A program made the position numbers and the translations under genes. A stretch of 64,000 nt of DNA, taken from a virus. Taxonomy: Duplodnaviria > Caudoviricetes. Position 1 is the first letter of the stretch; the number at the start of each line of letters is the position of its first letter. This document shows, piece after piece, positions 5,292 through 46,805 of the stretch. The stretch spans positions 1,295 to 65,294 of the IMG/VR virus record IMGVR_UViG_3300037807_000296; one strand, given 5' to 3'. The notes under the pieces are model-generated. The model was not told the origin of the DNA and searched no databases. It saw nothing but the letters and a program-made list of their open reading frames with translations.

Positions 5292-5708
5292 ATGACTAGT
5301 AATACAACCAAAGGAATAATTATGAGTACAAGTGAAGATATTTTTAAACAATTTGATGGCGAAAGTTTTGAATTTGGGATTGACTTCGTCGATAGCGTCA
5401 GCAAAGAACAAGAAGTTGATGACATTAAACAAGTAGTATCAGACAGCAATAGTAACCTAGAACATAAATTAGATGGACTAACATCTCACTTAGATCAATT
5501 AGCAGCTAAGATAGACTTTAGCGAATCTAAAGAATTAGTAGAAGCTAATGCGCAGCGCAAGGTGGTTGACATTGTGCAATTGATAGTACCTTTGCTTCGT
5601 AACCTACAAAAATCTCCAGAATCAGATACCATTTATTGGCCTGGTTCTAAGAGGGTGCCGATGATCGATTCTCAGTTAAATAAGATGAAAGTGATATTAG
5701 ATAGTTAA
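5292..5708 (+). CDS. Conserved hypothetical coiled-coil protein
   Basis: 138-aa ORF (start may be 5322, after AAGGA); PLLRNL..SPE..IYWP motif. Confidence 0.65.
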   Translation: MTSNTTKGIIMSTSEDIFKQFDGESFEFGIDFVDSVSKEQEVDDIKQVVSDSNSNLEHKLDGLTSHLDQLAAKIDFSESKELVEANAQRKVVDIVQLIVPLLRNLQKSPESDTIYWPGSKRVPMIDSQLNKMKVILDS

Positions 5709-7003
5709 CTGTCTAGATAGAACCCTAGATCTTTCCACGTCAAACCAACAATATCATCCTCTGTTCCTAAATATTGAAGGTAGTTGTTACGAAGATAAGA
5801 TAATTTGGTTATCACTTGGTTGAAATTTGTCCGTGCTAATCTTATGATCACAGATGGTGATAAGTGTGGTAATTGATCAGCCATTAATACTCCAGTTCTG
5901 AAACACCCTAACTCAATATGACATATGTTACTATATCTAAATCCTTTAGTTTTGGTTGATTTTTTATGAGCTCTCTCAAATGAATTTAAACCAGTATCAT
6001 CCACATCGTTTAATTTTGTGCTAAGCATTTTAATACCAGCTCTCTTAAACGAATTTAAACCATTTTCATCTATATCATCTAATCTAGTGTTGAGGGTTTT
6101 GATACCAACTCTCTGAAACGTATTCAAACCATTTACATCTACATCATTTAATTTAGTCTCATTTCCTTTTCTTGTGTTTCGGATACAAGCATTCAAACCA
6201 TTTTCGTCTATATCATTCAATTTAGTATTAAGCATTTTAACACCAACTCTCTGAAACGTATTCAAACCATTTTCGTCTATATCATTTAGTTTCGTATTAG
6301 ATGCTTTAATACCAACCCTCTGAAATGTATTCAAACCATCTTCGTCTATGTTGTTTAGTTTAGACTCAATCATCCGTTTAGTTGATGGTATTTTAACATT
6401 ATCAATCCAATCAGGATCGTTGTAATGTGATTTAATTTTATCTACAGCTGCTACCCACACTGTAGATTTCCAATCAGGGTTATTGTGATACTTGCTGTTA
6501 CTCTTACCTATCTGGATGCATGCTGGTTTCCACACATCATTAACCCAATTTACATCTTCATGGTGTTTGGATATCTTCAAGCTAGTTCTGTTAAATTCAT
6601 TTAACCCATTATCATCAATATTATTTCTTTTAGTTTCGAGTCCCTTATTAATACTTTCTACTGAATTCATAAACGAGTTAGCATACGATAGATTATAGAA
6701 TAAAGGATTTGAAGCTGCCTCATATTCTCTTTGTAACTTCTCCTCGTAATCTAAACAATCTTTCTTAAACGAAAATGTTTTAACGATAATGCGTTCTAAT
6801 TGAGGGGATTGATTTTTTTGAAGGATCTTGAAATGCTCAACGGTAGAAGATCCAAAGTAAGTATCCTCTTCAGGATTAATATTTTTCTCAATGAGTTCTT
6901 TACGTGTTGAGGAACCAATATAATACTTCTCTGTTCCTATAGGATTGAGATCAGTAATAAGATAAACGTAAAAGTTGGGGCCGCTATAAATAGATGTATA
7001 CAT
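5705..7003 (-). CDS. Free-standing GIY-YIG (Seg-like) endonuclease with tandem repeats, paralog 1
   Basis: YVY...YIG, Arg, Glu and FYN motifs in the first 110 aa; 23-aa and ~21-aa repeats; C-terminal domain ending WKDLGFY. Confidence 0.88.
   Translation of the reverse strand: MYTSIYSGPNFYVYLITDLNPIGTEKYYIGSSTRKELIEKNINPEEDTYFGSSTVEHFKILQKNQSPQLERIIVKTFSFKKDCLDYEEKLQREYEAASNPLFYNLSYANSFMNSVESINKGLETKRNNIDDNGLNEFNRTSLKISKHHEDVNWVNDVWKPACIQIGKSNSKYHNNPDWKSTVWVAAVDKIKSHYNDPDWIDNVKIPSTKRMIESKLNNIDEDGLNTFQRVGIKASNTKLNDIDENGLNTFQRVGVKMLNTKLNDIDENGLNACIRNTRKGNETKLNDVDVNGLNTFQRVGIKTLNTRLDDIDENGLNSFKRAGIKMLSTKLNDVDDTGLNSFERAHKKSTKTKGFRYSNICHIELGCFRTGVLMADQLPHLSPSVIIRLARTNFNQVITKLSYLRNNYLQYLGTEDDIVGLTWKDLGFYLDS
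5948..6637 (-). repeat. Coding repeat array A-B-B-B-A6 (A = 23 aa/69 bp TKLNDIDENGLNxxxRxxxK; B = ~21 aa NDPDW type)
   Basis: Visible in both translation and DNA. Confidence 0.9.
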
Positions 7004-10221: not shown

Positions 10222-11106
10222 TTAATTAGCTATTTCATAATAATAAAATCCTAAACTTTTCCAAGTCTTATTTATAGGATTATTGGGGAGGTTTTGAAGG
10301 AATAAACTTCGATTGATGCTGCCTTTACTGATTACAGCATTAAAATCTTGTTTACACAATCTTCGGATAGTTCTCGCTAGTACACTGTAAGTGTGTATCT
10401 CTTTAATAGCGTTTACTAGAGCTTGAGCTGAGTGGAATTCTCCAACTCCCTTGAACCCGTAAAATTTGTAACCGTGTCTTGTCTCTACATGTTTTCGTAT
10501 CTTATCCTTCCCGATAGTCGCTTTCCATTCAGGATCAGTAATAGTTTCAATGTGTTTAGCGGTACTATCCTTTCCTGTAGTTGCTTTCCACTCAGGATCG
10601 TTTCTGGTGTTTATCATTTTAGCTGATTGTTTTTTTCCTGTAGTTGCTTTCCATTCAGGATCAGTAATAGTTTCTAATCTTTTAGCTGATTGTTTTTTTC
10701 CTGTAGTTGCTTTCCATTCAGGATCAGTAATAGTTTCAATGTGTTTAGCGTTTGAATTAAATGATGGGGCAAATCCTTTATTAGCATATCCTTTGTTGTA
10801 GAATAAAGGATTAATAGCTGCTTTGTGTTCTCGTTGTAAATTCTCCTCATAATCTAAACATTCTTTGATGTTATCAAATGTTTCAATTATTACACGTTCT
10901 AATTGAGATGATTGGGTTTTTTGAAGGATCTTAAAATGCTCAACAGAGGATGATCCGTAATAAGTATCCTCTTCAGGATTAATGTTATTTTCTTGTAATT
11001 CTTTACGATAAGAGGAACCAATATAATACTTCTCTGTTCCTATAGGATTGAGGTCAGTGATTAAGTAAACATAAAAGTTAGGGCCGCTATAAATAGATGT
11101 ATACAT
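10222..11106 (-). CDS. GIY-YIG endonuclease paralog 2, lying between the uvsX halves
   Basis: N-terminus nearly identical to 5705..7003; four 21-aa repeats; ends WKSLGFY. Confidence 0.88.
   Translation of the reverse strand: MYTSIYSGPNFYVYLITDLNPIGTEKYYIGSSYRKELQENNINPEEDTYYGSSSVEHFKILQKTQSSQLERVIIETFDNIKECLDYEENLQREHKAAINPLFYNKGYANKGFAPSFNSNAKHIETITDPEWKATTGKKQSAKRLETITDPEWKATTGKKQSAKMINTRNDPEWKATTGKDSTAKHIETITDPEWKATIGKDKIRKHVETRHGYKFYGFKGVGEFHSAQALVNAIKEIHTYSVLARTIRRLCKQDFNAVISKGSINRSLFLQNLPNNPINKTWKSLGFYYYEIAN
10498..10749 (-). repeat. Four 63-bp/21-aa repeats AKxxETITDPEWKATTGKxxx
   Basis: Visible directly. Confidence 0.92.
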
Positions 11107-13280: not shown

Positions 13281-14639
13281 ATGATCACAACTGAAAATGT
13301 TATAATATCTGAGTTATTGACTAACGTTGATTATCTTCAAAGAGTGATCGCACATATTAGACCAGAATATTTTCATGATGCAGCAGAGAGAGTGGTTCTA
13401 GAAGAGATTATAAAATATACAATTAAATATGGCAATGCTCCTAGTAAAGATGCTCTTGCTATTAATATTGATTCTCGAGATGATCTTAATGAGCAGCAAT
13501 ATATTAATGTGATTGATGTATTGGAAAATTTATCTGAAGAATCTCATGATAATGATTGGCTTATAGATGCAACAGATCAGTTTATCAAAGATAAGAGTGT
13601 ATATAATGCTGTAATGGAAAGTATCTCTATTATTGATGATAATGAAAAGCCTAATACATCCCTCCCTGATATACTGAGTGATGCGTTATCTGTATCTTTA
13701 GATGATCATGTTGGTCATGATTATTTGGATGATATTGAAGAACGATATGATTTTTATCATAACGTAGAGGAACGTATACCGTGTGATCTAAGCCGATTGA
13801 ATGTGGCAATGAAAGGGGGAGCACCTAAAAAAACGTTAAACTGTGCTATGGCGGGTACAAACGTGGGGAAAACAGTATTTTTATGTTCATTAGCGGCATC
13901 TTATTTAAAACAACATAAAAATGTGTTGTATATTACGATGGAGATGGCTGAGGAACGTATTGCTGAACGTATTGATGCTAATATTCTAAAAACCCCAATG
14001 GATGAGTTGGAACATCTTGATAGAGATATGTACACCACAAAATTTAAGAATGCTATGAGTAATGTGAAAGGTAATCTTATTGTAAAGGAATACCCTACAG
14101 GTGCAGCATCTGCAGCAACGTTTAGAGGGTTGTTAAAGGAATTGAAAATAAAGAAGGATTTTACTCCGGATATTCTTTTAATTGATTATCTAGCGATCTG
14201 CTCTTCTACTAGATATAGTGGAGTGTCGGAGAATAGTTATCATTTCGTTAAAGCAGTCGCAGAAGAGTTGCGGGGATTAGCGATTGAATGTAATGTTCCA
14301 ATATGGACAGCAGCTCAAACGAATCGTGGTGCATTTAACGATTCTGATCCTGATATGACAAGTATTGCTGAATGTATATACGTAGAAGAGCAGGTTGAGT
14401 TAGTTAATGGTGATTTCATTGCTATTAAAGATGTTGAAATTGGTGATAAGATTTTAGATAATGAGATGTATAAGACTGTGGTGACTACTCATCACGTGAA
14501 ACCTAAAGATTGTGTTAAGATCACATTAAAATCGGGGAAAACTATCATTGTATCTAAGCAACACGTTTTCCCTACTAAGAGTGGTCGTAAATCGATAGAT
14601 TTAGGGTTGTGTGTTGGGGATAGATTGAATACTAAATGA
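13281..14639 (+). CDS. 41: Replicative helicase gp41 N-terminal part fused to an 88-aa N-intein
   Basis: AGTNVGKT, ITMEMAE, LIDYL, AAQTNR; after SIAE the sequence switches to intein CIYVEEQV...SKQHVFPT. Confidence 0.94.
   Translation: MITTENVIISELLTNVDYLQRVIAHIRPEYFHDAAERVVLEEIIKYTIKYGNAPSKDALAINIDSRDDLNEQQYINVIDVLENLSEESHDNDWLIDATDQFIKDKSVYNAVMESISIIDDNEKPNTSLPDILSDALSVSLDDHVGHDYLDDIEERYDFYHNVEERIPCDLSRLNVAMKGGAPKKTLNCAMAGTNVGKTVFLCSLAASYLKQHKNVLYITMEMAEERIAERIDANILKTPMDELEHLDRDMYTTKFKNAMSNVKGNLIVKEYPTGAASAATFRGLLKELKIKKDFTPDILLIDYLAICSSTRYSGVSENSYHFVKAVAEELRGLAIECNVPIWTAAQTNRGAFNDSDPDMTSIAECIYVEEQVELVNGDFIAIKDVEIGDKILDNEMYKTVVTTHHVKPKDCVKITLKSGKTIIVSKQHVFPTKSGRKSIDLGLCVGDRLNTK
14373..14636 (+). 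mobile_element. Split intein IntN (88 aa) in gp41
   Basis: Cys1, IKDVEIGDKI, block B SxxH. Confidence 0.9.
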
Positions 14640-14692: not shown

Positions 14693-15244
14693 ATGACACA
14701 AAAAGAGTTTGAGCAGGATTGTTATGAAAAAGCGCAAAAATATATACAAGGTGGATTGGTACACGCTGGTACTGATTTATTAAACCTCACTGAAGTGTTT
14801 ATATCTATGGGTCAAGAGCATTTGGATAGAATGTTATTATCTGACTCTAAAATAGATTATAATGATGAGATAGTTGCTATTGAAGAGGTGGGAGTTAAGG
14901 ATACTGTGGATATTTCAGTTACTGGAGATCATCTTTTCTATTGTAATGGCATATTAACGAAAAATTCATTTGGACTTGCTGCCACTCTCGATTTCCTCAT
15001 TTCATTAACGACTAATGATGAGTTATCTGAGATGGGTCAAATTAAATTCAAAACTATTAAAAATAGGTATACTGAGGATAAAAAATCATTTATGGTGAAT
15101 GTTGATTTCCCTCGAATGACATTCTCTGATGTTGATGATATATCTACTAACTATTCAGTATCACCCCAAACTCAAGATTTGATGTCTAATAAACCTACAT
15201 TTAACTCTAGAGTTAGTAAATTTGATAGTATCGTTGTTAATTGA
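14693..15244 (+). CDS. 41: C-intein fused to the gp41 C-terminal part
   Basis: DEIVAIEEVG..TVDISVTGDHLFYCNGILTKN|SFGLAATLDF...IKNRY. Confidence 0.92.
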   Translation: MTQKEFEQDCYEKAQKYIQGGLVHAGTDLLNLTEVFISMGQEHLDRMLLSDSKIDYNDEIVAIEEVGVKDTVDISVTGDHLFYCNGILTKNSFGLAATLDFLISLTTNDELSEMGQIKFKTIKNRYTEDKKSFMVNVDFPRMTFSDVDDISTNYSVSPQTQDLMSNKPTFNSRVSKFDSIVVN

Positions 15245-15260
15245 ACTGATAAATAATGAG

Positions 15261-15476
15261 ATGAATGAAGAACATAAAAATAGATTGATATCTAAAACGA
15301 TATCAGATGATATCCGGACATTAGAGAGATTCGTTAAATTATACTCAAGAAAATCATCAATAATCCGTAAATTATCATCTGGTAATAACGTTGATTATGG
15401 ACAAGATTCTGATGTGATTTTACATGGAATTTCTTTGATATCTCAAACACTAACTAAATTAAAGAGTGTAACATGA
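15261..15476 (+). CDS. Hypothetical protein
   Basis: ORF after GATAAATA at 15248; start uncertain. Confidence 0.5.
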   Translation: MNEEHKNRLISKTISDDIRTLERFVKLYSRKSSIIRKLSSGNNVDYGQDSDVILHGISLISQTLTKLKSVT

Positions 15477-16891
15477 AAAGTTTCTTAGATCATTTGGATG
15501 AGGTTAAATTCAGCTCTAAACGTATTAACTCAGTGTTAACTTTACTAGCATCTCTAGCTAGTAAAAAAGTTGGAAGTGAGTTTAAGAGACTTGAGGGATC
15601 CATCTTCCTTGATGTGCAATTTAAGAAAGCTGATGGTATAAAAGGATCTGGTGCCTTATATATGAATGAAAAAGGTCAGATGCTTCGTATAGGAGTTAGC
15701 AAAGGTAAGGGTTTCGAGAATAAGAGTAATGAGCTTAATACTTTTGATTTCTGGGAAGCGGGGATGGATTGGTCGAAGCCTTCTCGATCAGCTATAGCAT
15801 ACCCTCATTATAATATCATAGATGTAGTGAATGATGTACTTCTTTATGTTATTAAAGGTAATTATCCTATTAAAGAGAGTTTAGATGAAGCAGCGACTCA
15901 AGTTAAATCAGGGTCAAAATTATTCCTCTACGCATTATCTAAAGGGTGGGAAGCAGAGGATGCTGTAGCATTAACACAGCATAGTCTCAAATCCCGATTG
16001 AATAAATCTGGTGATTGGGATAATGATGAGTTTAGAGGATATAAGAAGATAAGCTCATCAGAAGTTAATAGCGTTAAAGTTAATATGAAAAAAGCTGATA
16101 AAATATTAGCAGATCGTAAGTATGCTGATCCCGATTTAGTATTTAATGATATTGAGGATTTAGCTAAAGTGGTTGCATCAGGTGCTCAGAATAGTATGAT
16201 TGTGGCTGGGATGGCTGGAATTGGTAAAACGTATCACATCGAAAAAACTCTAGAATCTATGTTTGGATCTCCTGACGGTCCAAACGCGAGATGGAGACAT
16301 TATAAAGGGGCTAAGTTATCAGTCTTTGGTTTATATAATGCTCTATATCAAAATAGAACTGATATGACTATAGTATTTGATGACTCTGATAGTGTGTGGA
16401 AGGATGCTGATGCAGTTAACATCCTCAAATCTGCTTTAGATACTTATGAGAAGAGAAAATTATCGTGGACTAGTAAAGCGACGTTCCCTGTTCAAAATCT
16501 AACTCCAGAAGAGAGATTGGAATATGAGATGAAGGTTGATGGAGAGTTATTGGATCCTGATTCACTTTCTGCTGTTAAACTTCCATCAGAGTTTATCTTC
16601 ACGTCTAGAGTTATATTTATTAGTAATCTCCCTCCTAATAAGATTGACTCTGCTATTCAATCAAGATCACTGTTTATTGATGTAAACTTAACAAGAGAGA
16701 GTGTAATCCTCCGAATCAAATCAATCCTTAAAGTTATTCATTTAGATGTATCAGATGAGGAGAAGTTTGCTATTGTGGATGCGTTATCAGAAAACTCTTC
16801 GACTCTAACTATGAGAGCTGTTGAGGCTGCTATGGCTATTAAAAAGGCAGGAATCAATGATTGGGAAAGACTTGTTTCACAGTACGTCTAA
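15473..16891 (+). CDS. AAA+ ATPase with capsid-targeting-like N-terminus
   Basis: GMAGIGKT, IVFDDSD, FISN, AIQSRS; begins MKSFLDHLDE. Confidence 0.82.
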   Translation: MKSFLDHLDEVKFSSKRINSVLTLLASLASKKVGSEFKRLEGSIFLDVQFKKADGIKGSGALYMNEKGQMLRIGVSKGKGFENKSNELNTFDFWEAGMDWSKPSRSAIAYPHYNIIDVVNDVLLYVIKGNYPIKESLDEAATQVKSGSKLFLYALSKGWEAEDAVALTQHSLKSRLNKSGDWDNDEFRGYKKISSSEVNSVKVNMKKADKILADRKYADPDLVFNDIEDLAKVVASGAQNSMIVAGMAGIGKTYHIEKTLESMFGSPDGPNARWRHYKGAKLSVFGLYNALYQNRTDMTIVFDDSDSVWKDADAVNILKSALDTYEKRKLSWTSKATFPVQNLTPEERLEYEMKVDGELLDPDSLSAVKLPSEFIFTSRVIFISNLPPNKIDSAIQSRSLFIDVNLTRESVILRIKSILKVIHLDVSDEEKFAIVDALSENSSTLTMRAVEAAMAIKKAGINDWERLVSQYV

Positions 16892-16989
16892 ACATCCTCG
16901 TAATAGTAAAATCCTAAATCTTGATGGGATGTTGCGATGGACGTGAACAGTATACAAACGGAAACTACAGTTATTGGAGAGTGTATCAA

Positions 16990-17943
16990 ATGAAAACATT
17001 TGAGATGTATATCAGTGAGCGGAGACGGAATCCAGATCAGAATCCTAGAATATCAGCATATGATGCTCTATTAAAGTATAAAGATGATTCTGATATGTAT
17101 ATCAGTTTTACCTCAAAACGAAAGATTGGGATTAATCCAGCGTCTGATTACAATACTCCCTTATCTATATACACTTACCCTTTAAAAGAGATTTGGAAGG
17201 GATTTGATCATAAACATAAACGAATTGTAGTACCGTTTGCAGGTCAATATAAACATATATGGGTGTTGAAGCAAACTGGGACTAAATTTATAAAAAACAT
17301 GAATCAGGATTACTTATCGAGTGATTATGATCGAGATATGATGAAGTTGAGAGATTTATATGAAAAGGAATCGATGGCCTCTGTAACTAAAGACGCTATA
17401 CTATTCTCAGCTAAAAAGATAACCCGAGCTATTATAGGTATTAACTCTAATCAAGATTCTAAGCATCTTGTATTTGGATCTATGATTGAAAATGTTTATG
17501 ATGTTATTAAGATTGGAGTTATTAGCTGGGATGAGTTTAAGTTGAAGGTAAATGCATTTCAATCCCTTGATAAAGATTATACACAAGTTGAAGTTGAGCT
17601 TAAAAAACACAATGATATGTTCATTGCTAATAGTATATCATTTATAGAGAAGCAGGGAGCACAAAACGCTCGTTTTAAATCGCCTATTGGAATATTTTGG
17701 TATGTTACTATGAAGCTTGCTGAGAAGCTTGCTACTGGAGGACAGTTTAAACCAAGAGGTGTCAAAATTGGAAATAAGACTTCAAGAAAATGGAATAGTG
17801 TATTACGATCCTTAGGTTATGCGGGTTTCGCTGATAAAGATGGAAAGGGAATTATACACTCTTCAGAACCAATGCAGGCAATATTCTTAGATAAGAAGAG
17901 TTTTAAAGTCATTGAACTGATATACAATGAGATTGATAAATAA
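16990..17943 (+). CDS. Hypothetical protein, possibly ADP-ribosyltransferase-like
   Basis: SD GGAG before ATG 16990, MKTFEMYISE; LGYAGF...EP.QAIF pattern; fold is a guess. Confidence 0.55.
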   Translation: MKTFEMYISERRRNPDQNPRISAYDALLKYKDDSDMYISFTSKRKIGINPASDYNTPLSIYTYPLKEIWKGFDHKHKRIVVPFAGQYKHIWVLKQTGTKFIKNMNQDYLSSDYDRDMMKLRDLYEKESMASVTKDAILFSAKKITRAIIGINSNQDSKHLVFGSMIENVYDVIKIGVISWDEFKLKVNAFQSLDKDYTQVEVELKKHNDMFIANSISFIEKQGAQNARFKSPIGIFWYVTMKLAEKLATGGQFKPRGVKIGNKTSRKWNSVLRSLGYAGFADKDGKGIIHSSEPMQAIFLDKKSFKVIELIYNEIDK

Positions 17944-17947
17944 TAAT

Positions 17948-19312
17948 ATGAAAACATTTACCCAATACATCTTTGAAGGAAAAGCGTCTCTAAGTAGATC
18001 GAATTTCTCGGATAATCCAATTAGATTTGAGAAGTTTAAAGAGTTGATTTCTCAAGGATTTGAATTTGAATTAGTAGATAAACATGGATCTAAGAAGGTT
18101 GTTATAGATAAAGCGGTATTATCAGTGTTATCTGATGATCCTTCGTCCATTCCTGCATCTATTGATACAACGGACGGTCCTCATACAATTGGGCACTTCT
18201 TCAAAATCCCAGAACTTGGAGGGGGCAAGGGATCAGGAGGAGGGGCAGCGTCAACTAGATTGATGGAATCACTTCAATGTTTGTACTGTTCTTTAGCGTT
18301 TAATGTAGTTAAAGGGAATATATCAACACTCCACCTCCTCTCAGATAATTTAAAATCTGCGGCAAAGTACATTGATGTGGATGAGCAGTTTGATAATCTC
18401 TTAAACGTTAATCAACAAGATTGGATTGATGGGACTATATTAGCAGCGAATAAAATATACAACTATCTAGGTAATCACAAGTATACAATGCATCGTGGAT
18501 CTAAATTCATGAAGAAGATATACCAAAATAAAACTGATTTAATGAAAAAGGAATTGGGAACAGACTTGAATCCAGATAAATGGAATCCAGGGGATGTCTG
18601 GTTCGTAACATCTGAAGGGGAGAAGCAGATTAATAGAGGAAGTGGATCTATTGATGATTATAATCTATTGATTAAACGGTTATTCCAGAGTAGAGATTTA
18701 GTCGGTATATCCTTAAAGAAGATTGGGGGATCGGTAGCTATAGATGCTTATAATATAGAAGTTGAAGTTGTTGATGATAAATTCTCTTCATTTATAACTT
18801 CATCTAAACGAAATGATTTTTTTAATTCAATTGATGTGTATCTATTCTCAGATAAAAATACTACAATTCAATTGAGAGCATTTGGTAAGATTACGGGATG
18901 GCAGGCTGAGATTAAAGAGAAGTTAGCTAGTGGGGGTAAGATGAGTTTAGGCCCGATTAACATGCTCCTAAGAAGATTGAAGCATAGAATTCTCCCTGAT
19001 AGTAAACGAGTATCAAAAGCAGCTAAGGAACCTAATAACGTGTTCTGGAAAGAGTTTCATAGACTGTATGAGAAATATTCCGATGAACAATCTATGTCAC
19101 TAGAAGATTTTATCCTTAAAGCTACTTCTGGGAAGATGTCAAATCCTCAAAAAGCACACTCCTTCCGTTATAGTAAGTTTTTAGGATTGAAGTTCATTGA
19201 TATTTTAAACGGAACATCTAAAAGATCTGATAAAGATGATATAATTAAAGGTATGATAAGGTATGCTAGATCATCAACAGATCTCTCTTCTGTTTATATT
19301 AAAGTTCATTAA
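17948..19312 (+). CDS. Putative PD-(D/E)xK-type nuclease
   Basis: KWNPGDVW...VGISLKK; begins MKTFTQYIFE. Confidence 0.6.
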   Translation: MKTFTQYIFEGKASLSRSNFSDNPIRFEKFKELISQGFEFELVDKHGSKKVVIDKAVLSVLSDDPSSIPASIDTTDGPHTIGHFFKIPELGGGKGSGGGAASTRLMESLQCLYCSLAFNVVKGNISTLHLLSDNLKSAAKYIDVDEQFDNLLNVNQQDWIDGTILAANKIYNYLGNHKYTMHRGSKFMKKIYQNKTDLMKKELGTDLNPDKWNPGDVWFVTSEGEKQINRGSGSIDDYNLLIKRLFQSRDLVGISLKKIGGSVAIDAYNIEVEVVDDKFSSFITSSKRNDFFNSIDVYLFSDKNTTIQLRAFGKITGWQAEIKEKLASGGKMSLGPINMLLRRLKHRILPDSKRVSKAAKEPNNVFWKEFHRLYEKYSDEQSMSLEDFILKATSGKMSNPQKAHSFRYSKFLGLKFIDILNGTSKRSDKDDIIKGMIRYARSSTDLSSVYIKVH

Positions 19313-19332
19313 TCAAATAAAAAGGTACACTA

Positions 19333-20532
19333 ATGTATACGTTTAAAGAATATATAGATCTGAATGAAGGGGGTAATATAACAATCCCTGATATACATGG
19401 AGTTGAGCATGATGCAGCTCGTATCCCATTAGAGGATATTGGCCGTAAAACATTTGTTGAATCTTTCCAAAAATTTTTCTTAAAGCTTAATACTATATTC
19501 GAGAAAGAGTATAATTATCCTCTATGGCCGGATACTGGGGAAATCACTAATGCTGGTATCTTTAACGGCTCCACTAGTTTCATTATGAGTGCTGATTACT
19601 CTGATGAAGAAGTGCTTAAATATAAAAAAACTGCTGGTGATATTGATGTTGCATTCCCTCGAGAATATGGTCCTGATCTATATAACTTACTTCTTAAACT
19701 TAGAGGAAAGGAGTTGGTTCCGGGATTAGAGTATATAGGGAATAACGCTAAAACTCAAGATAAATTAGGCAATACTATAATATGTATAGTGAAAGCTCGT
19801 TATGGTGATATAGAAGTATCTGCTCAAGTAGATATGGAATTATCAGAATTCGTACAAGGTAAACAAACCGATTGGAGTGCTCATATACACTCGAGTAGCT
19901 TTGAAGACGCTAAGGCAGGAATTAAAGGAGCAGCATCAAAATTCTTATGGAGAGCGTTGATTGGGATCACTTCACAAGTAACAGATAACTTCTTAGAAGC
20001 GACACCATCTAGTACACCTGATAAGATAACAATCAAAAAGAAACAGCCTGCTTACTTGAGTCTTATAGTGTATGGAGGAGAAGCAGGTGTTGGTACGAAT
20101 CCTGCATATGAGTTAATGGTTGATTCAAAGAATAAACCTATCTTAGTAAATGGGAAGAGGGTGTTCCGTAAGCTGAAGCCTAAAGAGAGGACTTATGATA
20201 GAAATCTAGGAAACCTCATTAAGATAGCATTTGGGGGCAAGATTGATTCTAAGAAGATACCTAAGAAGGAGTTAGATAGTTTTGTTAAGACATTAGCGAT
20301 AGCTAATAAGTATCTTGATAAAAAGAGTAAGGAAGATGTGAATTATAGGTTCATGTTAATATTGTTTGGAGAAGATGGAAGGACACAAACTATTGAGCCT
20401 AAAAATCCAAGAGAGGATTTAGAGATTAAGATGGCTATGTATAATAAACTAATTGAACTCTTGAAAATTAAAGCACATCCGCAATTAGAGGCTAAGGTTA
20501 ATATGTACATGAAGGTTATGCATAAGTCATAA
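19333..20532 (+). CDS. Pol-beta superfamily nucleotidyltransferase
   Basis: NGS...GDIDV and QVD motifs; begins MYTFKEYIDLNE. Confidence 0.68.
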   Translation: MYTFKEYIDLNEGGNITIPDIHGVEHDAARIPLEDIGRKTFVESFQKFFLKLNTIFEKEYNYPLWPDTGEITNAGIFNGSTSFIMSADYSDEEVLKYKKTAGDIDVAFPREYGPDLYNLLLKLRGKELVPGLEYIGNNAKTQDKLGNTIICIVKARYGDIEVSAQVDMELSEFVQGKQTDWSAHIHSSSFEDAKAGIKGAASKFLWRALIGITSQVTDNFLEATPSSTPDKITIKKKQPAYLSLIVYGGEAGVGTNPAYELMVDSKNKPILVNGKRVFRKLKPKERTYDRNLGNLIKIAFGGKIDSKKIPKKELDSFVKTLAIANKYLDKKSKEDVNYRFMLILFGEDGRTQTIEPKNPREDLEIKMAMYNKLIELLKIKAHPQLEAKVNMYMKVMHKS

Positions 20533-21837
20533 TTTAACATCTTCGTAATAATAAAACCCTAAATCGTGATATGATTTACCAGTAGGATCATCTTCTAGGG
20601 ACTGGAGAAATGGACTATTCCCTCTTCTCGTGATGATTGTTTTGAAATTACTTTTAGCTAATTCATGAATACGAGATGAGCTCAAACTACATCCGTAATG
20701 TTTTTTAATAGCAGCAGCGAGTGCTTTAGGAGTGTGAACAACCTCCACTCCTTTAAATCCGTAACACTTGTGACCACATAACGTTTTACTTCTCTTCTGT
20801 GCAGCGTCTTTTCCGGTAGTATTTTTCCATTTTACATTATTTACAGTTTTGATGTGTTTAATAGCACCTCGTTCATGAGAATTCAATCCACTATCGTCTA
20901 TATCATTTAATTTAGTGTATTTAGTTTTAATAGCACCTCGTTCATGAGAATTCAATCCACTATCGTCTATATCATTTAATTTAGTGTATTTAGTTTTAAT
21001 AACACCTCGTTCATAAGAATTCAATCCATTATCATCTATATTATTTAATTTAGTTTCACTTATTTTAAATACACTTCTTTGGTATGAATTTAATCCATCA
21101 TCATCTATATTATTTAATCGAGATGCACAAGTTTTAGCACCAGCTCTTTGATAAGAGTTCAATCCATCGTTGATATCATTTAATCTAGTTTCTTTTACTT
21201 TAAATGCACTTCTTTGATTTGTATTCAATCCGTCATCATCGATGTCATTTAATTTAGTTTCTTTTACTTTAAATGCACTTCTTTGATAAGAGTTTAATCC
21301 ATCATCATCGATATCATTTAATCTAGTTTCTTTTGCTTTAACTCCAACTCTTTGATAAGAGTTCAATCCGTTACTATCTATATCTTTTAATCTCGTTGTG
21401 TTAGATTTAAGGATAGCTCTTTCAAATACATTTAATCCATTCTCATCCACATTAGTGAGTTTTGTTTTTACTGTTTTCAGTTGCGATTCAGCAGTTGTTG
21501 AGAATCCACGATTAGCATAACATTTGTTGTAGAATAAAGGATTGGAAGCGGCATCATGATCTCTTTGTATCTTCTCCTCATAATCTAAACATCTTTTCTT
21601 AGAAGAAAATGTTTTAATAATAATGCGTTCTAATTGAGGTGATTTGGATTTTTGAAGAGCTCTAAAATGTTTAACAGAAGAAGACCCAAAATAAGTATCT
21701 AGTTCTGGATTTATGTTATTCTCTTGTAGCTCTTTACGATGTGATGACCCAATATAATACATCTCTGTTCCTATAGGATTGAGATCAGTAATAAGATAAA
21801 CGTAAAAGTTGAGGCCGTTATAAATAGATGTATGCAT
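20527..21837 (-). CDS. GIY-YIG endonuclease paralog 3 with tandem repeats
   Basis: Same N-terminal nuclease domain; nine A-type repeats plus one B-type; ends YHDLGFY. Confidence 0.88.
   Translation of the reverse strand: MHTSIYNGLNFYVYLITDLNPIGTEMYYIGSSHRKELQENNINPELDTYFGSSSVKHFRALQKSKSPQLERIIIKTFSSKKRCLDYEEKIQRDHDAASNPLFYNKCYANRGFSTTAESQLKTVKTKLTNVDENGLNVFERAILKSNTTRLKDIDSNGLNSYQRVGVKAKETRLNDIDDDGLNSYQRSAFKVKETKLNDIDDDGLNTNQRSAFKVKETRLNDINDGLNSYQRAGAKTCASRLNNIDDDGLNSYQRSVFKISETKLNNIDDNGLNSYERGVIKTKYTKLNDIDDSGLNSHERGAIKTKYTKLNDIDDSGLNSHERGAIKHIKTVNNVKWKNTTGKDAAQKRSKTLCGHKCYGFKGVEVVHTPKALAAAIKKHYGCSLSSSRIHELAKSNFKTIITRRGNSPFLQSLEDDPTGKSYHDLGFYYYEDVKL
20788..21468 (-). repeat. Coding repeat array A9-B (69-bp unit)
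   Basis: TKLNDIDDxGLNSxxRxxxK repeated. Confidence 0.9.
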
Positions 21838-21864
21838 GATAATACTCCCGTATTGTTATGTTAG

Positions 21865-21897
21865 AAAGGGAATGGTGATTGGTTCATCATTCCTTTT
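21865..21897 (+). terminator. Conserved hairpin plus T-run
   Basis: AAAGGGAATGGTGA-TTGGT-TCATCATTCCTTTT. Confidence 0.6.
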
Positions 21898-21901
21898 CGT
21901 A

Positions 21902-21921
21902 TATTTATCAGATGATAAATA
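21902..21921. promoter_or_regulatory. Back-to-back late promoters (GATAAATA on both strands)
   Basis: TATTTATC-AGAT-GATAAATA between divergent genes. Confidence 0.7.
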
Positions 21922-21926
21922 TTAAT

Positions 21927-23075
21927 ATGAAAACATTTAAAAGTTACCTTAATGAATTAGTGCACTTCTCTGAAATACTCACGAAGAAGGGTGAGTCTTT
22001 TGTTGATAAGTTACTCTCACAATACATCATAGTGAACTTTAAGATTGATGTAAGTGCATTCGTTTTTGGTAAAGAGAATGGTGAACTTGTCTTTTATGGA
22101 AGAGAAGGTAAAGTCGAGATTGATAAAGTTAAACGAGCTGGTATGGATCTTTTTGAGCCATTCATTGAGCGTATAGAACAATCCGATTGGCAACAGATGC
22201 CAGATGGTATTAGAATATATGCTGAAATGTTTACTGGTAAATTTGAGCCTATCATTAAACATCCTGTAACACCTAAGAATGGATTGATCATATCTTACAG
22301 TGAACTCAATGGTAAAAGGTTGTTGCCTAATAATCCTATTAATATAGAGATGGCTAAGTTATTTGATATAGCTCCCCCTCCTATTATGTTTGAAGGTAAG
22401 TTGAATAATAAACAGAAAGGTATGATCAAAGACTTCTTGAATAATCCAGAAGATTATAAACAAGTTGATTTTACCAAATTCATCTTAGGCTTATTCTTAC
22501 CACCTAAGAGTGTTAGTGGATTAATTGATGATCTAATTGAAGGTATTGTGATATACTTTGATGATGGATCAATGAGTAAGATTGTAGATCCAGGCTTTAC
22601 TGATACAGTTAAGATGAAAAAAGTGAAGATGAATGATAATACTTATAATGACACTTTGAAAGATGTTATCTTCAAGAATATAAAGTCTTCATATGATGCT
22701 ATTATGACTAATAAGACTACATTAAAGAAGATTAATAAAGAGAAGAGTTTGGATGATAAGTATATTAGATTAGCTGCTGCATTAACTGGTTCATTGATGC
22801 ATAAAGTGTCTAAGCAGTTTAAAGATATTGATATGTATAAAGATAGTGCACTAGAGAATAGATTCTCTTCTGTAACACATAAGATGTTGCCTGTTGGATT
22901 TAGTCAGATGATAAAGATTAAGAGTTGGTGGGCTGAAGATGTATTCCGAGTTGTATTGTTTGCATTGCCTAGAGAAAAGAAGAGAGTGCATAAAGCATCA
23001 GGATTAACACGAGAACGGAAAGAGTTGATTAATAACATAGTTGCTGATTTAAGAGTTAGAGGAATAGTAGAATGA
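21927..23075 (+). CDS. RNA ligase-like nucleotidyltransferase-fold protein
   Basis: FKID (motif I-like), YAEMF, IEGIVI, SKIVD; begins MKTFKSYLNE. Confidence 0.6.
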   Translation: MKTFKSYLNELVHFSEILTKKGESFVDKLLSQYIIVNFKIDVSAFVFGKENGELVFYGREGKVEIDKVKRAGMDLFEPFIERIEQSDWQQMPDGIRIYAEMFTGKFEPIIKHPVTPKNGLIISYSELNGKRLLPNNPINIEMAKLFDIAPPPIMFEGKLNNKQKGMIKDFLNNPEDYKQVDFTKFILGLFLPPKSVSGLIDDLIEGIVIYFDDGSMSKIVDPGFTDTVKMKKVKMNDNTYNDTLKDVIFKNIKSSYDAIMTNKTTLKKINKEKSLDDKYIRLAAALTGSLMHKVSKQFKDIDMYKDSALENRFSSVTHKMLPVGFSQMIKIKSWWAEDVFRVVLFALPREKKRVHKASGLTRERKELINNIVADLRVRGIVE

Positions 23076-23632
23076 AATTGTTTAAAGATTTTGTGAATGA
23101 AGGTAAGGAGATATTACCTCGAGATGATAACGCTCCTAAAGTATCATTATTTTTAGGTCGTATGGCACCGTTACATATAGGTCATCTTGCGATAATAAAG
23201 GAGATGGGTGATAATCCTATTATATTATTAGTGAAGGGTAAAGATTCATCTAATGATAAGAAAAAGAATCCATTTGACGCTAAAACACAGACTAAGTGGA
23301 TCAAGATGGTAGCGCCACATGCGGAAGTAAGAGAGATCAGTTCTGGATTTTTACCTAAGATTGCCGCAGAGTTGAGATATGAAGGTAAAGAATTGACTGC
23401 AGTATTCGCTGGTGAAGATAGGTTAGCTTCATACGAGAAGCAATTCAAGCGTATGACATTAGAACCTGAATTTGAGTATAACATAGACTTTAAATTGACG
23501 AAGCGTATTGCGAGTGCTACTGATGTTAGACAAGCTATTATTGATGATGACTATAATGCATATAAGAAGTTAATGCCGAGTAAGTTACACTCTGAGTATA
23601 AATTAATGCAAACGTTGATGACTGATAAATAA
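23072..23632 (+). CDS. HIGH-family cytidylyl/adenylyltransferase
   Basis: GRMAPLHIGH, KNPF, AGEDR, SATDVR. Confidence 0.85.
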   Translation: MKLFKDFVNEGKEILPRDDNAPKVSLFLGRMAPLHIGHLAIIKEMGDNPIILLVKGKDSSNDKKKNPFDAKTQTKWIKMVAPHAEVREISSGFLPKIAAELRYEGKELTAVFAGEDRLASYEKQFKRMTLEPEFEYNIDFKLTKRIASATDVRQAIIDDDYNAYKKLMPSKLHSEYKLMQTLMTDK

Positions 23633-33094: not shown

Positions 33095-34090
33095 ATGGAT
33101 TATATTGATATATCATACATTAGACAGTTATCTCCTCAGCTCAATAAGTTCAAGGATAAAGGTAACAACACATTTAATGCTAGATGTCCTGTATGTGGTG
33201 ATTCAAGTCTAAATCCCAACAAAGCTCGATTCTGGTTCTTTCCTGAAAAAGTTAAGACTAGAGTTCATTGTTTCAATTGTGGGTACTCATCAGAGTTATC
33301 ATGGTTTCTGAAAGATTATTATCCCAATTTATATAAAGAGTATCAGCGAGAGCGTTTTGGGTCCAGATCAATCAAGTCTAAGGAAGTTAGGCTTCCGAGT
33401 GTTCCGAAGCCGATATTCAAGCCAAAGCCTTTGAATCTCAAGAGTATTAAAGATTTATCAGTAGATCATCCAGCGAGGTTATATGTAACCAATCGGTTCA
33501 TACCAGAGGATAAGTTACATCTTTTATACATAGCTCCCAAGTTTAAAGCTTGGTCACATGAGATGATGCCTGAGAAGTATACATACATTAAACAAGATGA
33601 ACCTCGTCTTATTATACCATTCTTTGATAGAGATCATAATTTAATAGCATTTCAGGGAAGGAGTTTTGATCCCAGAGCAGATGTTAAATATATCACGATA
33701 AAAATTCAAGATACTGTTAAGCTTTTTGGACAAGAGCGGATAAATAATGATACAGATATAATTATCGTTGAAGGTCCTCTTGATAGTTTATTCCTTGACA
33801 ATTCATTAGCTATGGCTGGATCAGCAGTTAAAGATGTACCATATGATAAGGATAAGGTTATATTTGCATTCGATAGAGAGCCTCGTAATAAAGAAATCGT
33901 TAAAGCGATGCATAAAAAGATCAAACAAGGTTATAGGGTTTGTATAGCTGATAATCTCGAAGGTGGTAAAGATATTAATGATTGGATTAAGGCGAGACAC
34001 ACACCAAAACAGATACAATGTGATATAATAGAACATACGTATCAAGGAATGGAAGCTGAATTGAAATTAACCGAATGGAGAAAGTGTTGA
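33095..34090 (+). CDS. 61: DNA primase gp61
   Basis: RCPVCGDS...HCFNC zinc finger, FQGRS, VEGPLDSLF, FDREPRN, KDIND; start ATG 33095. Confidence 0.96.
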   Translation: MDYIDISYIRQLSPQLNKFKDKGNNTFNARCPVCGDSSLNPNKARFWFFPEKVKTRVHCFNCGYSSELSWFLKDYYPNLYKEYQRERFGSRSIKSKEVRLPSVPKPIFKPKPLNLKSIKDLSVDHPARLYVTNRFIPEDKLHLLYIAPKFKAWSHEMMPEKYTYIKQDEPRLIIPFFDRDHNLIAFQGRSFDPRADVKYITIKIQDTVKLFGQERINNDTDIIIVEGPLDSLFLDNSLAMAGSAVKDVPYDKDKVIFAFDREPRNKEIVKAMHKKIKQGYRVCIADNLEGGKDINDWIKARHTPKQIQCDIIEHTYQGMEAELKLTEWRKC

Positions 34091-34815
34091 AATCTTTTAA
34101 AGAATATGTGAATGAATCTTTTATCATTAAAGATGATGTGTTATCATTTGATTATAGCAATACTGAATCAACTAAGATGGGTAAACGAATTGTGATGGAA
34201 CCTTATAAGAAAAGGGGGAAGTCGACTGGTGGTATTGATGTGTATAGTGTATATAATGTTCATAATCAGACAGATGTTATTAAAAGTATCAAAGGTAAAG
34301 GACCGTACACGATCAGTTCAGAAGATTATCAGCAATTCTTAAAACGGACTGATTTATATATATCATCTAAGATTATAAAGTCTCATAAAATATCAACGAT
34401 CATCACTCCTAAATCTAGTAGTGGTATATTAAACGATCTTATAGTCTTATTGAAGAAACGTAATCCTCATATTAAGTTTTTACCGGAGACGTTGATTAAA
34501 GTGATTGATCCGAATCAGATTAAGATAGATTATGATCACCCTAAGATCACAGATAAAATTTCCAAAAGACTTGAGGGTATAATTAGAGCAGCTGTTAAAA
34601 ATAAATATTTTGAGATAAAAAAGGTAGATAAGAGATTCGCTCAATTTGTTTCTGGTTATTTTGAATCCAAGGATAATGTCAAATTCGAAGATGATGATAA
34701 TATTATGATCCTTGATGATGTAGTTAGCTCAGGTTCCACATTCACTGAAATACACAATATCATTAAAGGTTACAGATATAATAATGTCATTGGCACGACA
34801 ATTTTTAAGACATGA
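34087..34815 (+). CDS. Type I phosphoribosyltransferase-fold protein
   Basis: PRPP loop ILDDVVSSGST, PKSSS; probable TTG start giving MKSFKEYVNE. Confidence 0.72.
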   Translation: MKSFKEYVNESFIIKDDVLSFDYSNTESTKMGKRIVMEPYKKRGKSTGGIDVYSVYNVHNQTDVIKSIKGKGPYTISSEDYQQFLKRTDLYISSKIIKSHKISTIITPKSSSGILNDLIVLLKKRNPHIKFLPETLIKVIDPNQIKIDYDHPKITDKISKRLEGIIRAAVKNKYFEIKKVDKRFAQFVSGYFESKDNVKFEDDDNIMILDDVVSSGSTFTEIHNIIKGYRYNNVIGTTIFKT

Positions 34816-35156
34816 CGATTTTCGCTATAATAGGAAGTCGGACCTTCGATGATATTGAGTATGCTGCTAATAAATTAGATGAGATAATAAGTCAGTATGA
34901 TTCTATTGTATCGGGTGGAGCTAAAGGTGCTGATAGTATCGGAGCCGCGTACGCTGATATAAATGGATTACCATTAACAGTGTATAAGCCAGATTGGAAG
35001 AAGTATGGAAAAGGTGCTGGATTTATAAGGAATAAGTTAATAATAGATGAGTGTGATGTTGTGATTGCGTTTTGGGATGGTTCATCTAAAGGAACCAAAC
35101 ATAGTATAAATTTAGCTAGAAAGAGTGGTAAAGAAGTAATAATATTGAAACCTTGA
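34812..35156 (+). CDS. SLOG/YspA-like (DUF2493) protein
   Basis: IIGSR, VSGGAKGAD, AGFIRN, FWDGSSKGT. Confidence 0.85.
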   Translation: MTIFAIIGSRTFDDIEYAANKLDEIISQYDSIVSGGAKGADSIGAAYADINGLPLTVYKPDWKKYGKGAGFIRNKLIIDECDVVIAFWDGSSKGTKHSINLARKSGKEVIILKP

Positions 35157-35386: not shown

Positions 35387-37072
35387 ATGAACGATTATCA
35401 AAAATTTATAGCATTATCAAGATATGCTAGATGGTTACCTGAAGAGAAACGGAGAGAGCACTGGAGTGAGACAGTTGCTCGATATTTTGATTTTTTCACA
35501 AATCATTTAAAAGAAATTCATGAATATGATCTCACATCAAATGATCGTGAAGTATTAGAGGTTGCTATTAACAATCTTGATGTGATGCCATCAATGCGTT
35601 GTATGATGACAGCTGGAGATGCTCTCAAAAAGAATAATATAGCTGGATACAATTGCTCATATGTTGCTATTGATCACCCAAAAGCATTTGATGAAATTTT
35701 GTTCATTTTGATGCATGGAACTGGTGTGGGATTTTCTGTAGAGCGTCAGTTTATCCAGAAGCTCCATGAAATCCCGGAATTAGAATTAACAGGCTCCGTT
35801 ATTCAGGTAGCTGATAGTAAAGAAGGGTGGCAGAAGGGTTTGAGGAGATTGTTTCAACATTTGTGGGATGGGGAGATTCCTACATGGGATCTATCCAAGA
35901 TTAGAGAGAAGGGAGCGAGACTTAAAACGTTTGGGGGAAGAGCTAGTGGTCCTCAGCCATTAGAAGACCTTTTTCAGTTCACTGTACAGATGTTTAAAGG
36001 TGCTCAAAATCGTAAGTTGACATCTGTTGAGTGTCATCGGATTGCTTGTAAGATCGCAGAGGTTGTTGTGGTTGGGGGAGTTAGAAGAAGTGCTTTGATA
36101 TCCCTTTCCAATTTGAGTGATGAACGGATGAGACATGCTAAGTCAGGGCAATGGTGGGTTGACACACCAGAAATGGGTTTAGCTAATAATAGTGTATGTT
36201 ACACAGAGAAGCCTGATATCGGTATTTTTATGATTGAGTGGACTAGTTTATACGAATCTAAGTCAGGGGAACGTGGTATCTTTAACCGTGAAGCAGCGTA
36301 TAAACATCTCCCAGCTCGACGCAGAGAGCAATATGATGGTAAAGATCTACCTTTATACGGGACAAACCCCTGCAGCGAGATAGTTTTGCAAGATGGTCAA
36401 TTTTGTAATCTATCTGAGGTAGTATTAAGGACTAATGATACATTAGATGACATCCGATCTAAAGTTAAGCTTGCTGCTATATTAGGTACTATGCAAGCAA
36501 CATTAACAAATATTAAAGGTCTCCGTGCTAAATGGAAACAAGCTACTGTAGAGGAAGCTCTTCTAGGAGTTTCATTGACCGGTATTATGGATCACACATT
36601 CATGAATGGATCTAAAAAAACGGTGGAAGGTTTATCATTGCCTGATTTTTTGTCTGAGATAAAAGATATTGCAGTTTCTGTTAATGAGGAGTGGGCTAAT
36701 AAGTTTGGTATTAATCCTGCTATGGCTGCTACAGCAATCAAACCCAGTGGATGTACAACGTTAAACACTAAAATCAAAACAACTTCTGGTGATATGAGTA
36801 TGGCAGATATATTCATAGCTAATAAAGTTGAAGATGTTTTCAGTTTAAAACCTAATACATGGATTGAACCAATTATCGATGTTAAAGTTTATGATGAAAA
36901 TAATGATGAGCAATTGATAACAAAACTTTTTATTAATGGTTTATCAGATGTATATGAAGTAGAGTTTAATAATGAAAAATATAAATTTACAGGAAATCAT
37001 AAACTAAAGACGGTTGATGGATGGAAAAGAGTTGATGAAATAACTATAGATGATGATGTTATACAGTTGTAA
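35387..37072 (+). CDS. nrdJ: Class II (B12-dependent) ribonucleotide reductase N-part fused to a 106-aa N-intein
   Basis: PSMR, YNCS, GGVRRSA, TNPCSE, AIKPSG then intein CTTLNT...FTGNH. Confidence 0.94.
   Translation: MNDYQKFIALSRYARWLPEEKRREHWSETVARYFDFFTNHLKEIHEYDLTSNDREVLEVAINNLDVMPSMRCMMTAGDALKKNNIAGYNCSYVAIDHPKAFDEILFILMHGTGVGFSVERQFIQKLHEIPELELTGSVIQVADSKEGWQKGLRRLFQHLWDGEIPTWDLSKIREKGARLKTFGGRASGPQPLEDLFQFTVQMFKGAQNRKLTSVECHRIACKIAEVVVVGGVRRSALISLSNLSDERMRHAKSGQWWVDTPEMGLANNSVCYTEKPDIGIFMIEWTSLYESKSGERGIFNREAAYKHLPARRREQYDGKDLPLYGTNPCSEIVLQDGQFCNLSEVVLRTNDTLDDIRSKVKLAAILGTMQATLTNIKGLRAKWKQATVEEALLGVSLTGIMDHTFMNGSKKTVEGLSLPDFLSEIKDIAVSVNEEWANKFGINPAMAATAIKPSGCTTLNTKIKTTSGDMSMADIFIANKVEDVFSLKPNTWIEPIIDVKVYDENNDEQLITKLFINGLSDVYEVEFNNEKYKFTGNHKLKTVDGWKRVDEITIDDDVIQL
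36752..37069 (+). mobile_element. Split intein IntN (106 aa) in NrdJ
   Basis: Cys1 after PSG; block B TxNH; GWKRVDEI. Confidence 0.9.
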
Positions 37073-46631: not shown

Positions 46632-46633
46632 CC

Positions 46634-46705: not shown

Positions 46706-46722
46706 TATAATGTTATAAAATA

Positions 46723-46798: not shown

Positions 46799-46805
46799 GT
46801 TATAT

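Follow-up and report, generated by a model that had tools for sequence, protein, structure and literature searches.

In bacteriophage T4, internal proteins (IPs) enter the head by means of a short N-terminal peptide, the capsid-targeting sequence (CTS). The first 10 residues of IPIII suffice for head incorporation, and within the CTS, residues 4 and 7 mainly govern targeting and residues 8 and 10 processing (PMC9026906). The gp21 protease removes the N-terminal peptides from IPI–III and from Alt (PMC9958956). The prohead proteases of T4-type and giant (phiKZ-type) phages all cut after Glu, and T4 Alt is cleaved at ITE-6 and LTE-619 (PMC5694885). The T4 genome record gives MKTYQEFIAE/A (the slash marks the junction) as the start of ipII and ipIII, and MKTFKEF...ITE/A as that of ipI. 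The six-residue propeptide of Alt is not known to be of this MKTY/F type. The idea that T4-like phages can use the CTS to load a variety of proteins is already in print (PMC9026906), and ip genes have been detected by their signal sequence (PMC12373910). Here we describe seven genes, called P1–P7, whose sequences support a propeptide of the T4 capsid-targeting type at their N-termini. They lie on a 64,000-base stretch (the window; all coordinates are window positions) of the 65,294-base IMG/VR virus record IMGVR_UViG_3300037807_000296. P1–P6 are adjacent (15473–23632), and P7 stands apart at 34087. By analogy with T4, we put at roughly 0.7 the probability that a T4-type CTS directs P1–P7 to the core of the prohead, that the prohead protease removes it after Glu and that the proteins are delivered together with the DNA.

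The likeness to T4 IPI–III lies in the N-terminal peptide of approximately 10 residues (M-K-T-[YF]-x-x-F-[IT]-x-E, ending at the gp21 site), in otherwise unrelated cargoes that share the leader only, and in the placement of the genes in plastic, non-core parts of the genome. The T4 IPs are non-enzymatic inhibitors of GmrSD-type restriction of 95–193 aa, whereas the window cargoes measure 186–472 aa, most of them have predicted enzyme folds or motifs, and six sit in one block after gp41. Alt resembles the candidate cargoes in being a head-carried enzyme that gp21 trims after I-T-E and that is injected and acts before phage gene expression. Unlike Alt, which is an ADP-ribosyltransferase (ART), the window yielded no ART domain, and the predicted chemistry is nucleotidyl transfer and ligation. 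In the giant phages phiKZ and SPN3US, many head-internal proteins (the ejection proteins) likewise have N-terminal propeptides, which a gp21-related protease cleaves after Glu. Their cleavage motif is A/S-x-E, however, the propeptides are often long, and no common MKxF-type address peptide is seen in the accessible accounts of them. The 'polyvalent' effectors fused to MuF domains (Iyer et al., PMC9503650) also represent myoviruses pre-loading enzymes of nucleotide and NAD chemistry into heads, but those are packaged by fusion to a structural MuF/portal domain and not by a short cleavable leader.

The source of the window is a divergent T4-superfamily myovirus, because it encodes a gp43-type DNA polymerase (approximately 37 % identical to the enzymes of T4-like cyanophages, the nearest isolates), UvsX, a DnaB/gp41-type helicase, and further a primase-like protein, a class II ribonucleotide reductase and a DNA ligase. 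The polymerase matches 2677 phage records, mostly T4-like coliphages and cyanophages. The record is 37 % complete by CheckV, and the G+C content of the genome is approximately 33 %. When the leader gene cluster was compared with isolated phages by megablast, no match was found.

The leader was searched as a strict pattern, [KY].F..[YFH][ILV].{1,3}E, in six frames over the whole 65,294-base record. There are eight matches, and seven of them directly follow the start codon of a long open reading frame (ORF): ATG at 15473, 16990, 17948, 19333, 21927 and 23072, and TTG at 34087. The remaining match, QKAFLNFLEE at 3772, is internal. The consensus across P1–P7 is M-K-[ST]-F-x-x-[YF]-[LIV]-x-E, approximately 10 residues long, and it conserves the T4 determinants: F at position 4 in all seven, Y, F or H at 7, L, I or V at 8, and E at 10. 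In P4 the Glu is at 12, owing to a two-residue insertion. All nine N-termini quoted in a preliminary description of this DNA are present in the sequence; those at 58689 (MKKFRDFNSADEVSVNE) and 61621 (MKNFLSE) fail the strict pattern, and the gene at 34087 starts with TTG, with an in-frame ATG four codons upstream (MEKVLKSFKEYVNE). The ORFs of the leaders at 16990, 17948 and 21927 each contain an in-frame start ahead of the leader ATG. We take the leader ATG as the true start because homologues begin with the leader, and the position of GATAAATA, an octamer described below, also favours it.

Many phage proteins begin with MK, and in an A+T-rich genome such as this one the leader could in principle reflect chance or a compositional bias of N-termini. 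As a control, residues 2–30 of every protein from 94 crudely called genes were shuffled for 3000 rounds. The strict leader stands at ATG in 6 of the 94 genes, against a shuffle mean of 0.001 per genome with a maximum of 1, and the core pattern matches internally once in 19,229 residues. Chance is effectively refuted by the six-frame and shuffle results, and the conservation of the leader junction across P1 and P2 homologues, described below, likewise speaks against it. The genome-wide enrichment that the preliminary description had named as a check is borne out by these numbers.

The features of the window that are referred to below are as follows.

15248–15255, plus strand: GATAAATA, late-promoter-like octamer heading unit 1 (small ORF, P1, P2), 5 nt before the ATG at 15261.
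15261–15476, plus strand: small ORF of 71 aa with no leader and no Pfam match; its stop overlaps the P1 start.
15473–16891, plus strand: P1, 472 aa, leader MKSFLDHLDE; N-terminal domain, then a possible AAA-type ATPase domain.
16990–17943, plus strand: P2, 317 aa, leader MKTFEMYISE; invariant RRNPxxNP block after the leader.
17935–17942, plus strand: GATAAATA, heading unit 2 (P3, P4), 5 nt before the ATG.
17948–19312, plus strand: P3, 454 aa, leader MKTFTQYIFE; family widespread in T4-like cyanophages.
19333–20532, plus strand: P4, 399 aa, leader MYTFKEYIDLNE; invariant GGN after the leader, Pol-beta-type motifs (GDID, D167).
20527–21837, minus strand: GIY-YIG homing-endonuclease-like gene, inserted in the cluster and not cargo.
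21914–21921, plus strand: GATAAATA, heading unit 3 (P5, P6), 5 nt before the ATG.
21927–23075, plus strand: P5, 382 aa, leader MKTFKSYLNE; predicted RNA-ligase-type nucleotidyltransferase fold plus a C-terminal helical domain.
23072–23632, plus strand: P6, 186 aa, leader MKLFKDFVNE; HIGH-motif (cytidylyltransferase-like, NMNAT-like) nucleotidyltransferase; start overlaps the P5 stop.
34087–34815, plus strand: P7, 242 aa, leader (TTG)KSFKEYVNE; weakly phosphoribosyltransferase (PRTase)-like C-terminus; between a primase gene and a SLOG-domain gene.
58689–61577, plus strand: double AAA ATPase of 962 aa starting MKKFRDFNSADEVSVNE; weak candidate leader, no match to the strict pattern.
61621–63546, plus strand: DUF2201_N protein of 641 aa starting MKNFLSE; weak candidate leader, no match to the strict pattern.

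We consider the modularity of the leader, with its end at Glu, to be the strongest evidence. All seven window leaders end in hydrophobic-x-Glu (L/I/V-x-E), and homologues in the P1, P2, P3, P4 and P5 families show the leader to be a detachable extension with the same ending just ahead of the conserved domain. For P2, a search returned 111 proteins, or 110 homologues once the window's own gene call is set aside. The block xRRNPxxNP was located in 73 of them, and Glu stands just before the block in 70 of the 73. Subsite P3 holds Leu 46 times and Ile 14 times, subsite P1′ holds Ala 40 times and Lys 21 times, and leaders of 10 residues are the commonest in the family. Among 150 representatives of the P1 family, the block A.FS...L.KV could be placed in 65, and it follows hydrophobic-x-Glu in 50 of these (of the remaining 15, several reflect a one-residue offset of the search pattern). 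The P1 junction thus reads h-x-E/A.FS, h being hydrophobic, after a prefix of 6–30 residues, two artefactual values (0 and 1) excluded. In the P4 family the leader is followed by an invariant GGN in the window, in Campylobacter phage CP220 and in the IMG/VR loci L011 and L013; the orthologues of Vibrio phage Va1, Xanthomonas phage X1 and Stenotrophomonas phage Mendera have no leader and start M-GGN. The closest relatives of P3 have the leader; one homologue (P0124) and the majority of cyanophage members lack it and start at the mature end. P5 homologues at 47–48 % identity retain the leader, a P5 homologue at another locus (L014) has none, and the version at L015 is six residues long. In the AlphaFold models the leader is outside the fold, with a predicted local distance difference test score (pLDDT) below 50 at residues 1–19 of P5 and 1–8 of P3.

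The small ORF and the six cluster genes are arranged so that the latter form three two-gene units, each headed by one copy of GATAAATA (15248, 17935 and 21914). We take this octamer to resemble the T4 late promoter. Similar sites precede tail-fibre-like genes at 25423, 29980 and 30865, and from these sites and the T4 likeness we infer that GATAAATA may act as a late promoter. Three starts lie exactly 5 nt past the octamer and without a Shine–Dalgarno sequence (15248–15263, 17935–17950 and 21914–21929). If GATAAATA is a late promoter, the late mRNAs would be leaderless or nearly so at these three starts.

This spacing also bears on a second alternative, namely that conservation acts on the DNA or mRNA, as a translation-initiation enhancer, a repressor operator or a cassette for gene shuffling by recombination, and the peptide is a by-product. 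The leader codons are A+T-rich and start with ATG AAA, and mobile 5′ cassettes have reportedly been described in T4-type genomes. The codons nevertheless vary between the copies (TTC/TTT, TAT/TAC, GAG/GAA, and L, I and V from five different codons), so conservation and selection are at the protein level. These changes at conserved leader positions are synonymous or keep the residue class. The leader length ranges from approximately 6 to 30 residues, yet the hydrophobic-x-Glu junction is retained, and the motif persists across phages of very different base composition and below 50 % protein identity. We therefore regard a nucleic acid signal as very improbable.

Evidence from virions comes from the cyanophages. 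Homologues of P3 are found in 117 phage records, nearly all of them T4-like cyanophages. In Synechococcus phage S-SCSM1, ORF89–93, downstream of gp41, carry virion-protein annotations, and the homologue of P3 among them is ORF90. ORF91, similar to nicotinamide mononucleotide adenylyltransferase (NMNAT), starts with MKSFLQFLKE/A and matches P6 weakly. Mass spectrometry of CsCl-purified S-SCSM1 virions identified 45 phage proteins, among which ORF91 was singled out as non-structural and possibly carried into the host (PMC9602691). ORF91 matches 568 phage records. Its homologues, annotated as cytidyltransferases, carry the leader M[KR]xFxxF[LI]xE/A in five of five further cyanophages, or six of six with S-SCSM1. 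NMNAT-like or cytidylyltransferase proteins have been reported in the virions of S-CBWM1, S-SZBM1, S-SCSM1 and S-CREM2 (PMC10665884). The accessible portions of these virion papers mention no targeting leader and leave the route of entry into the virion open. The cyanomyovirus proteins are comparable with P6 in superfamily, in lying downstream of gp41 and in the leader; they differ in size and make-up, being approximately 380–410 aa with extra domains, against 186 aa for P6 and 23 % identity. The midasin- and cobS-annotated proteins of S-SCSM1 have no leader and are not flagged as virion proteins. A test of association between leader and virion presence in S-SCSM1 was set aside, two leader genes being too few for statistics.

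Blocks of leader genes recur in related phages. In two IMG/VR loci (L011 and L012), gp41 precedes an unbroken row of five leader genes, among them homologues of P5 and P6 and a P4-like gene of the GGN type; a third (L013) has three consecutive leader genes. A related-locus search with P4 alone gave 51 pattern matches, none of which was confirmed. Of the three records with more distant homologues of P5, every one encodes a gp21-type protease (PF03420). One of these, called G002 here, is a complete T4-like genome of 159,837 bases, and a leader specific to its lineage, M[KR]Y[KS]EILxE, stands at the start of 22 of its 205 called genes. The 22 genes fall in four clusters, two of which flank head genes, and mostly form runs of adjacent small genes, for example at 131476–140456 (L021–L028). 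The G002 pattern, drawn up after viewing the genome, has 12 internal matches in 48,293 residues, and its shuffle mean is 0.22. A block from a P4 homologue to a P6 homologue was also noted in phages X1 (L030, 2125–5474) and Mendera (L031, 1375–4492). There it has no leaders and adjoins baseplate hub genes, and between the two homologues in X1 lies a gene whose KLDG motif resembles ligase motif I.

Several results weigh against head packaging. The prohead protease family PF03420 (gp21) was not found on the 37 %-complete fragment, and head proteins were absent among the window ORFs scanned against family models. GATAAATA stands directly upstream of only two of the seven leader genes (17948 and 21927), so the claim of the preliminary description that most of them follow it was overstated, though there is one octamer to each two-gene unit. 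The octamer is modestly enriched, approximately twofold (19 occurrences, with 10.7 ± 3.2 expected and a single shuffle out of 100 reaching 19). The leader is missing in the P4 and P6 orthologues of the Xanthomonas, Stenotrophomonas and Vibrio phages, and also in the cyanophage cytidyltransferase ACG-2014e gp150; since leaderless P4 and P6 orthologues exist, the enzymes need no packaging to work. In S-SCSM1 the leader is on only two real genes, and one of the two, ORF30 (106 aa), has no virion-protein flag. ORF90, the P3 homologue, is in the same virion without an MKxF leader, and virion presence therefore does not prove the CTS route. The S-SCSM1 authors themselves allow that the NMNAT may be a carry-over of an abundant protein (PMC9602691). 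In G002, 22 leader genes would make a large cargo, and they were counted with a post hoc pattern.

Some of these results are also what one would see if the leader were another kind of protein-level signal, such as an inhibitory propeptide cut off in the cytoplasm, a degron that sets how long the enzymes last or a tag for a cytoplasmic complex, with no head packaging. Any processed propeptide is expected to be modular and to keep a conserved Glu junction. The leaderless orthologues are evidently functional, many of the 22 leader genes of G002 code for small proteins, and ORF30 has the leader and no virion flag. Such a signal would not explain why the conserved positions match the T4 targeting residues 4 and 7 and not the cleavage residues alone, nor the presence of leader-bearing transferases in CsCl-purified virions. 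In addition, the sole known T4 protease of such specificity works inside the prohead (PMC9958956). On balance we find this alternative unlikely and prefer packaging by a T4-type CTS. The head-loaded enzyme suite proposed in the preliminary description is supported in part, by the leader positions, the modular junction, gp21 in three of three relatives and the mass spectrometry of relatives' virions; head genes lie off the fragment.

For docking, cleavage, injection and biological role, we reason by analogy with T4 IPI–III and Alt. Leader genes would be transcribed late from the GATAAATA promoters. During prohead assembly, the leader would dock the new protein on the scaffolding core, with positions 4 and 7 as determinants. 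A gp21-type prohead protease would then cut after Glu (processing positions 8 and 10) and leave the mature enzyme inside the head, from which the enzymes would exit with the DNA at the next infection. The cargo would be a linked enzyme module, consisting of P5 as an adenylyltransferase and P6 and P4 as nucleotidyltransferases, together with P1, the possible PRTase P7, P2 and P3. We can only guess at its role, which might be repair of RNA or nucleotides, or counter-defence, preceding phage gene expression; roles of the cargo in RNA repair, NAD chemistry or anti-defence are conjecture.

The enzyme labels first proposed for the cargo were examined one protein at a time. Those of P5 (ligase-like), P6 (HIGH transferase) and P4 (nucleotidyltransferase) hold up, the AAA ATPase (P1) and PRTase (P7) labels do so weakly, and the nuclease-like label of P3 does not. 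The AlphaFold model of P5 has a pLDDT of 81, and the PDB matches that Foldseek listed for it are RNA/DNA ligases (T4 Rnl2, Trl1, archaeal Rnl3 and T4 Rnl1), with E values from 1.5e-4 upward and low TM-scores (0.3–0.4). Residues K39, D41, E100, E205, G206 and K218 are invariant in seven sequences. Ligase motifs I, III, IV and V were assigned by eye, motif I being KIDVS and not KxDG. P5 had no Pfam or PDB sequence match, and its family profile found nothing useful among PDB sequences. The predicted fold supports the assignment of P5 as an RNA-ligase-fold nucleotidyltransferase.

P6 scores above the cut-offs of PF01467 (22.4 vs 21) and TIGR00125 (28.5 vs 27.7) and has its HIGH motif (HxGH) at residues 35–38, which supports membership in the HIGH-motif cytidylyltransferase-like nucleotidyltransferase superfamily. 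Its best PDB matches are archaeal NMNATs (E 0.017). P6 does not qualify as an NMN adenylyltransferase proper, as it fails the NMNAT equivalog and subfamily cut-offs (30.6 vs 127 for NF002243 and 21.3 vs 181 for TIGR01527). In P4, G102, D103 and D105 (GDID) and D167 are invariant in five sequences. The leads for P4 from the Atlas are clusters with nucleotidyltransferase names, with PF01909 in 33 % of one cluster; the comparison with PolX palm domains gave TM 0.36–0.40. These motifs and leads support P4 as a putative Pol-beta-type nucleotidyltransferase. Neither Pfam nor PDB sequences gave a match for P4, and a profile against PDB sequences found nothing useful. Some Atlas clusters that are structurally similar to P4 have the cytidylyltransferase-like PF01467 in 20 % and 37 % of members. 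The homologues of P5 and P6 are adjacent in L011, in L014 and in a 462-kb phage, and fused as one ORF in L015. P4, P5 and P6 therefore look like a single functional module. The L015 ORF (424–2097) has 557 codons and a GTG start (MKLYNE/LKHLS), and it contains P5-like ligase and P6-like HIGH transferase domains.

The remaining cargoes are less well defined. P1 scores 19.8 for AAA_16, against a cut-off of 32.6, and matches phrog_1250. Its residues 224–467 resemble T-even NrdC.10-type proteins, some of which are annotated as AAA domain-containing; an AAA ATPase is weakly supported. The T-even NrdC.10 ATPase-like protein has no leader. For P7, four NCBIfam PRT/ComF models match at residues 171–238 with E values of 0.002–0.005, all far below cut-off, and Pfam gave no match; the PRTase assignment is weak. 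Directly after P7 comes a gene for a 114-aa SLOG-family protein (34812–35156) with a YAcAr, DprA-like match. The pairing of P7 and SLOG suggests nucleotide-signal chemistry. P2 had no match in Pfam, NCBIfam or PDB, either as a single protein or as a 42-sequence profile. The model of P3 is confident (pLDDT 91.7), and its family has an invariant PGD...SLK pattern. A PD-(D/E)xK nuclease was considered for P3 and dropped: Foldseek gave no match at E ≤ 0.001, there was no PDB sequence match, and the best Z of a wide VIA search was 5.0, within noise (MspI, Z 3.7). The Atlas leads RE_HpaII and RE_HaeIII, at 0.83–0.84, are below the trusted level of 0.9. A confident model that finds no solved relative leaves the nuclease label unsupported.

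No published link of the CTS to cyanophage transferases or to a ligase/nucleotidyltransferase suite was found in a literature search that left subscription journals outside. Within the literature searched, three things appear to be new: the leader-bearing enzyme block in a distant relative of T4, the junction conserved across large metagenomic families, and the link to the cyanophage virion transferase. A wider proposal, which we advance tentatively and rate at somewhat under even odds, is that the T4-type address peptide is a general label, tuned to each lineage, across the T4 superfamily, including its marine and uncultured members. Enzyme toolkits would then be pre-loaded, with P4–P5–P6 as a pre-formed machine for repair or counter-defence. 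In that case P4–P5–P6 may act on host or phage RNA or nucleotides within the first seconds of infection, and such toolkits may replace a few small inhibitors, approximately a tenth of the genes being leader-bearing in one complete genome. Few injected phage proteins are known outside T4. They act before phage gene expression and are therefore prime candidates for action against host immunity. If packaging by the leader is true, a leader that ends in a hydrophobic-x-Glu junction would serve as a simple sequence rule for predicting which proteins many uncultured T4-like phages inject, and packaging would explain how NMNAT-like enzymes enter cyanophage virions. The conserved ligase/nucleotidyltransferase module would be delivered cargo with a substrate worth finding, and the natural leaders could serve for loading foreign proteins into the heads of T4 relatives other than coliphages.

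The GIY-YIG gene within the cluster is one of three paralogous homing-endonuclease-like genes on the minus strand (5705–7003, 10222–11106 and 20527–21837). Their 5′ ends are nearly identical (M[YH]TSIY[SN]G...YVYLITDLNPIGTE), and a minus-strand GATAAATA lies 61–75 nt upstream of each. The third paralogue has approximately nine tandem copies of a unit like LNDIDDDGLNSYQR.

The gp41/DnaB-type helicase upstream of the cluster is split over two ORFs (13281–14639 and 14693–15244) with a gap of 53 bases. The first continues for approximately 75 residues past the DnaB_C match, beginning Cys-Ile-Tyr, and the second contains ...LFYCNGILTKN/S. The two look like split-intein halves without an endonuclease in between. 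The class II ribonucleotide reductase ORF (35387–37072) has a weak Intein_splicing match at its end (residues 498–559, E 0.00097), and after it comes a separate ORF of 150 aa (37218–37670); this pair may be a second split or broken intein-containing gene. The window also has seven tRNAs, clustered at 46205–48355. Just upstream of them, at 45646–45689, are two tandem copies of approximately 30 bases containing GATAAATAATAGTATAATATAGAAATATACAAA.

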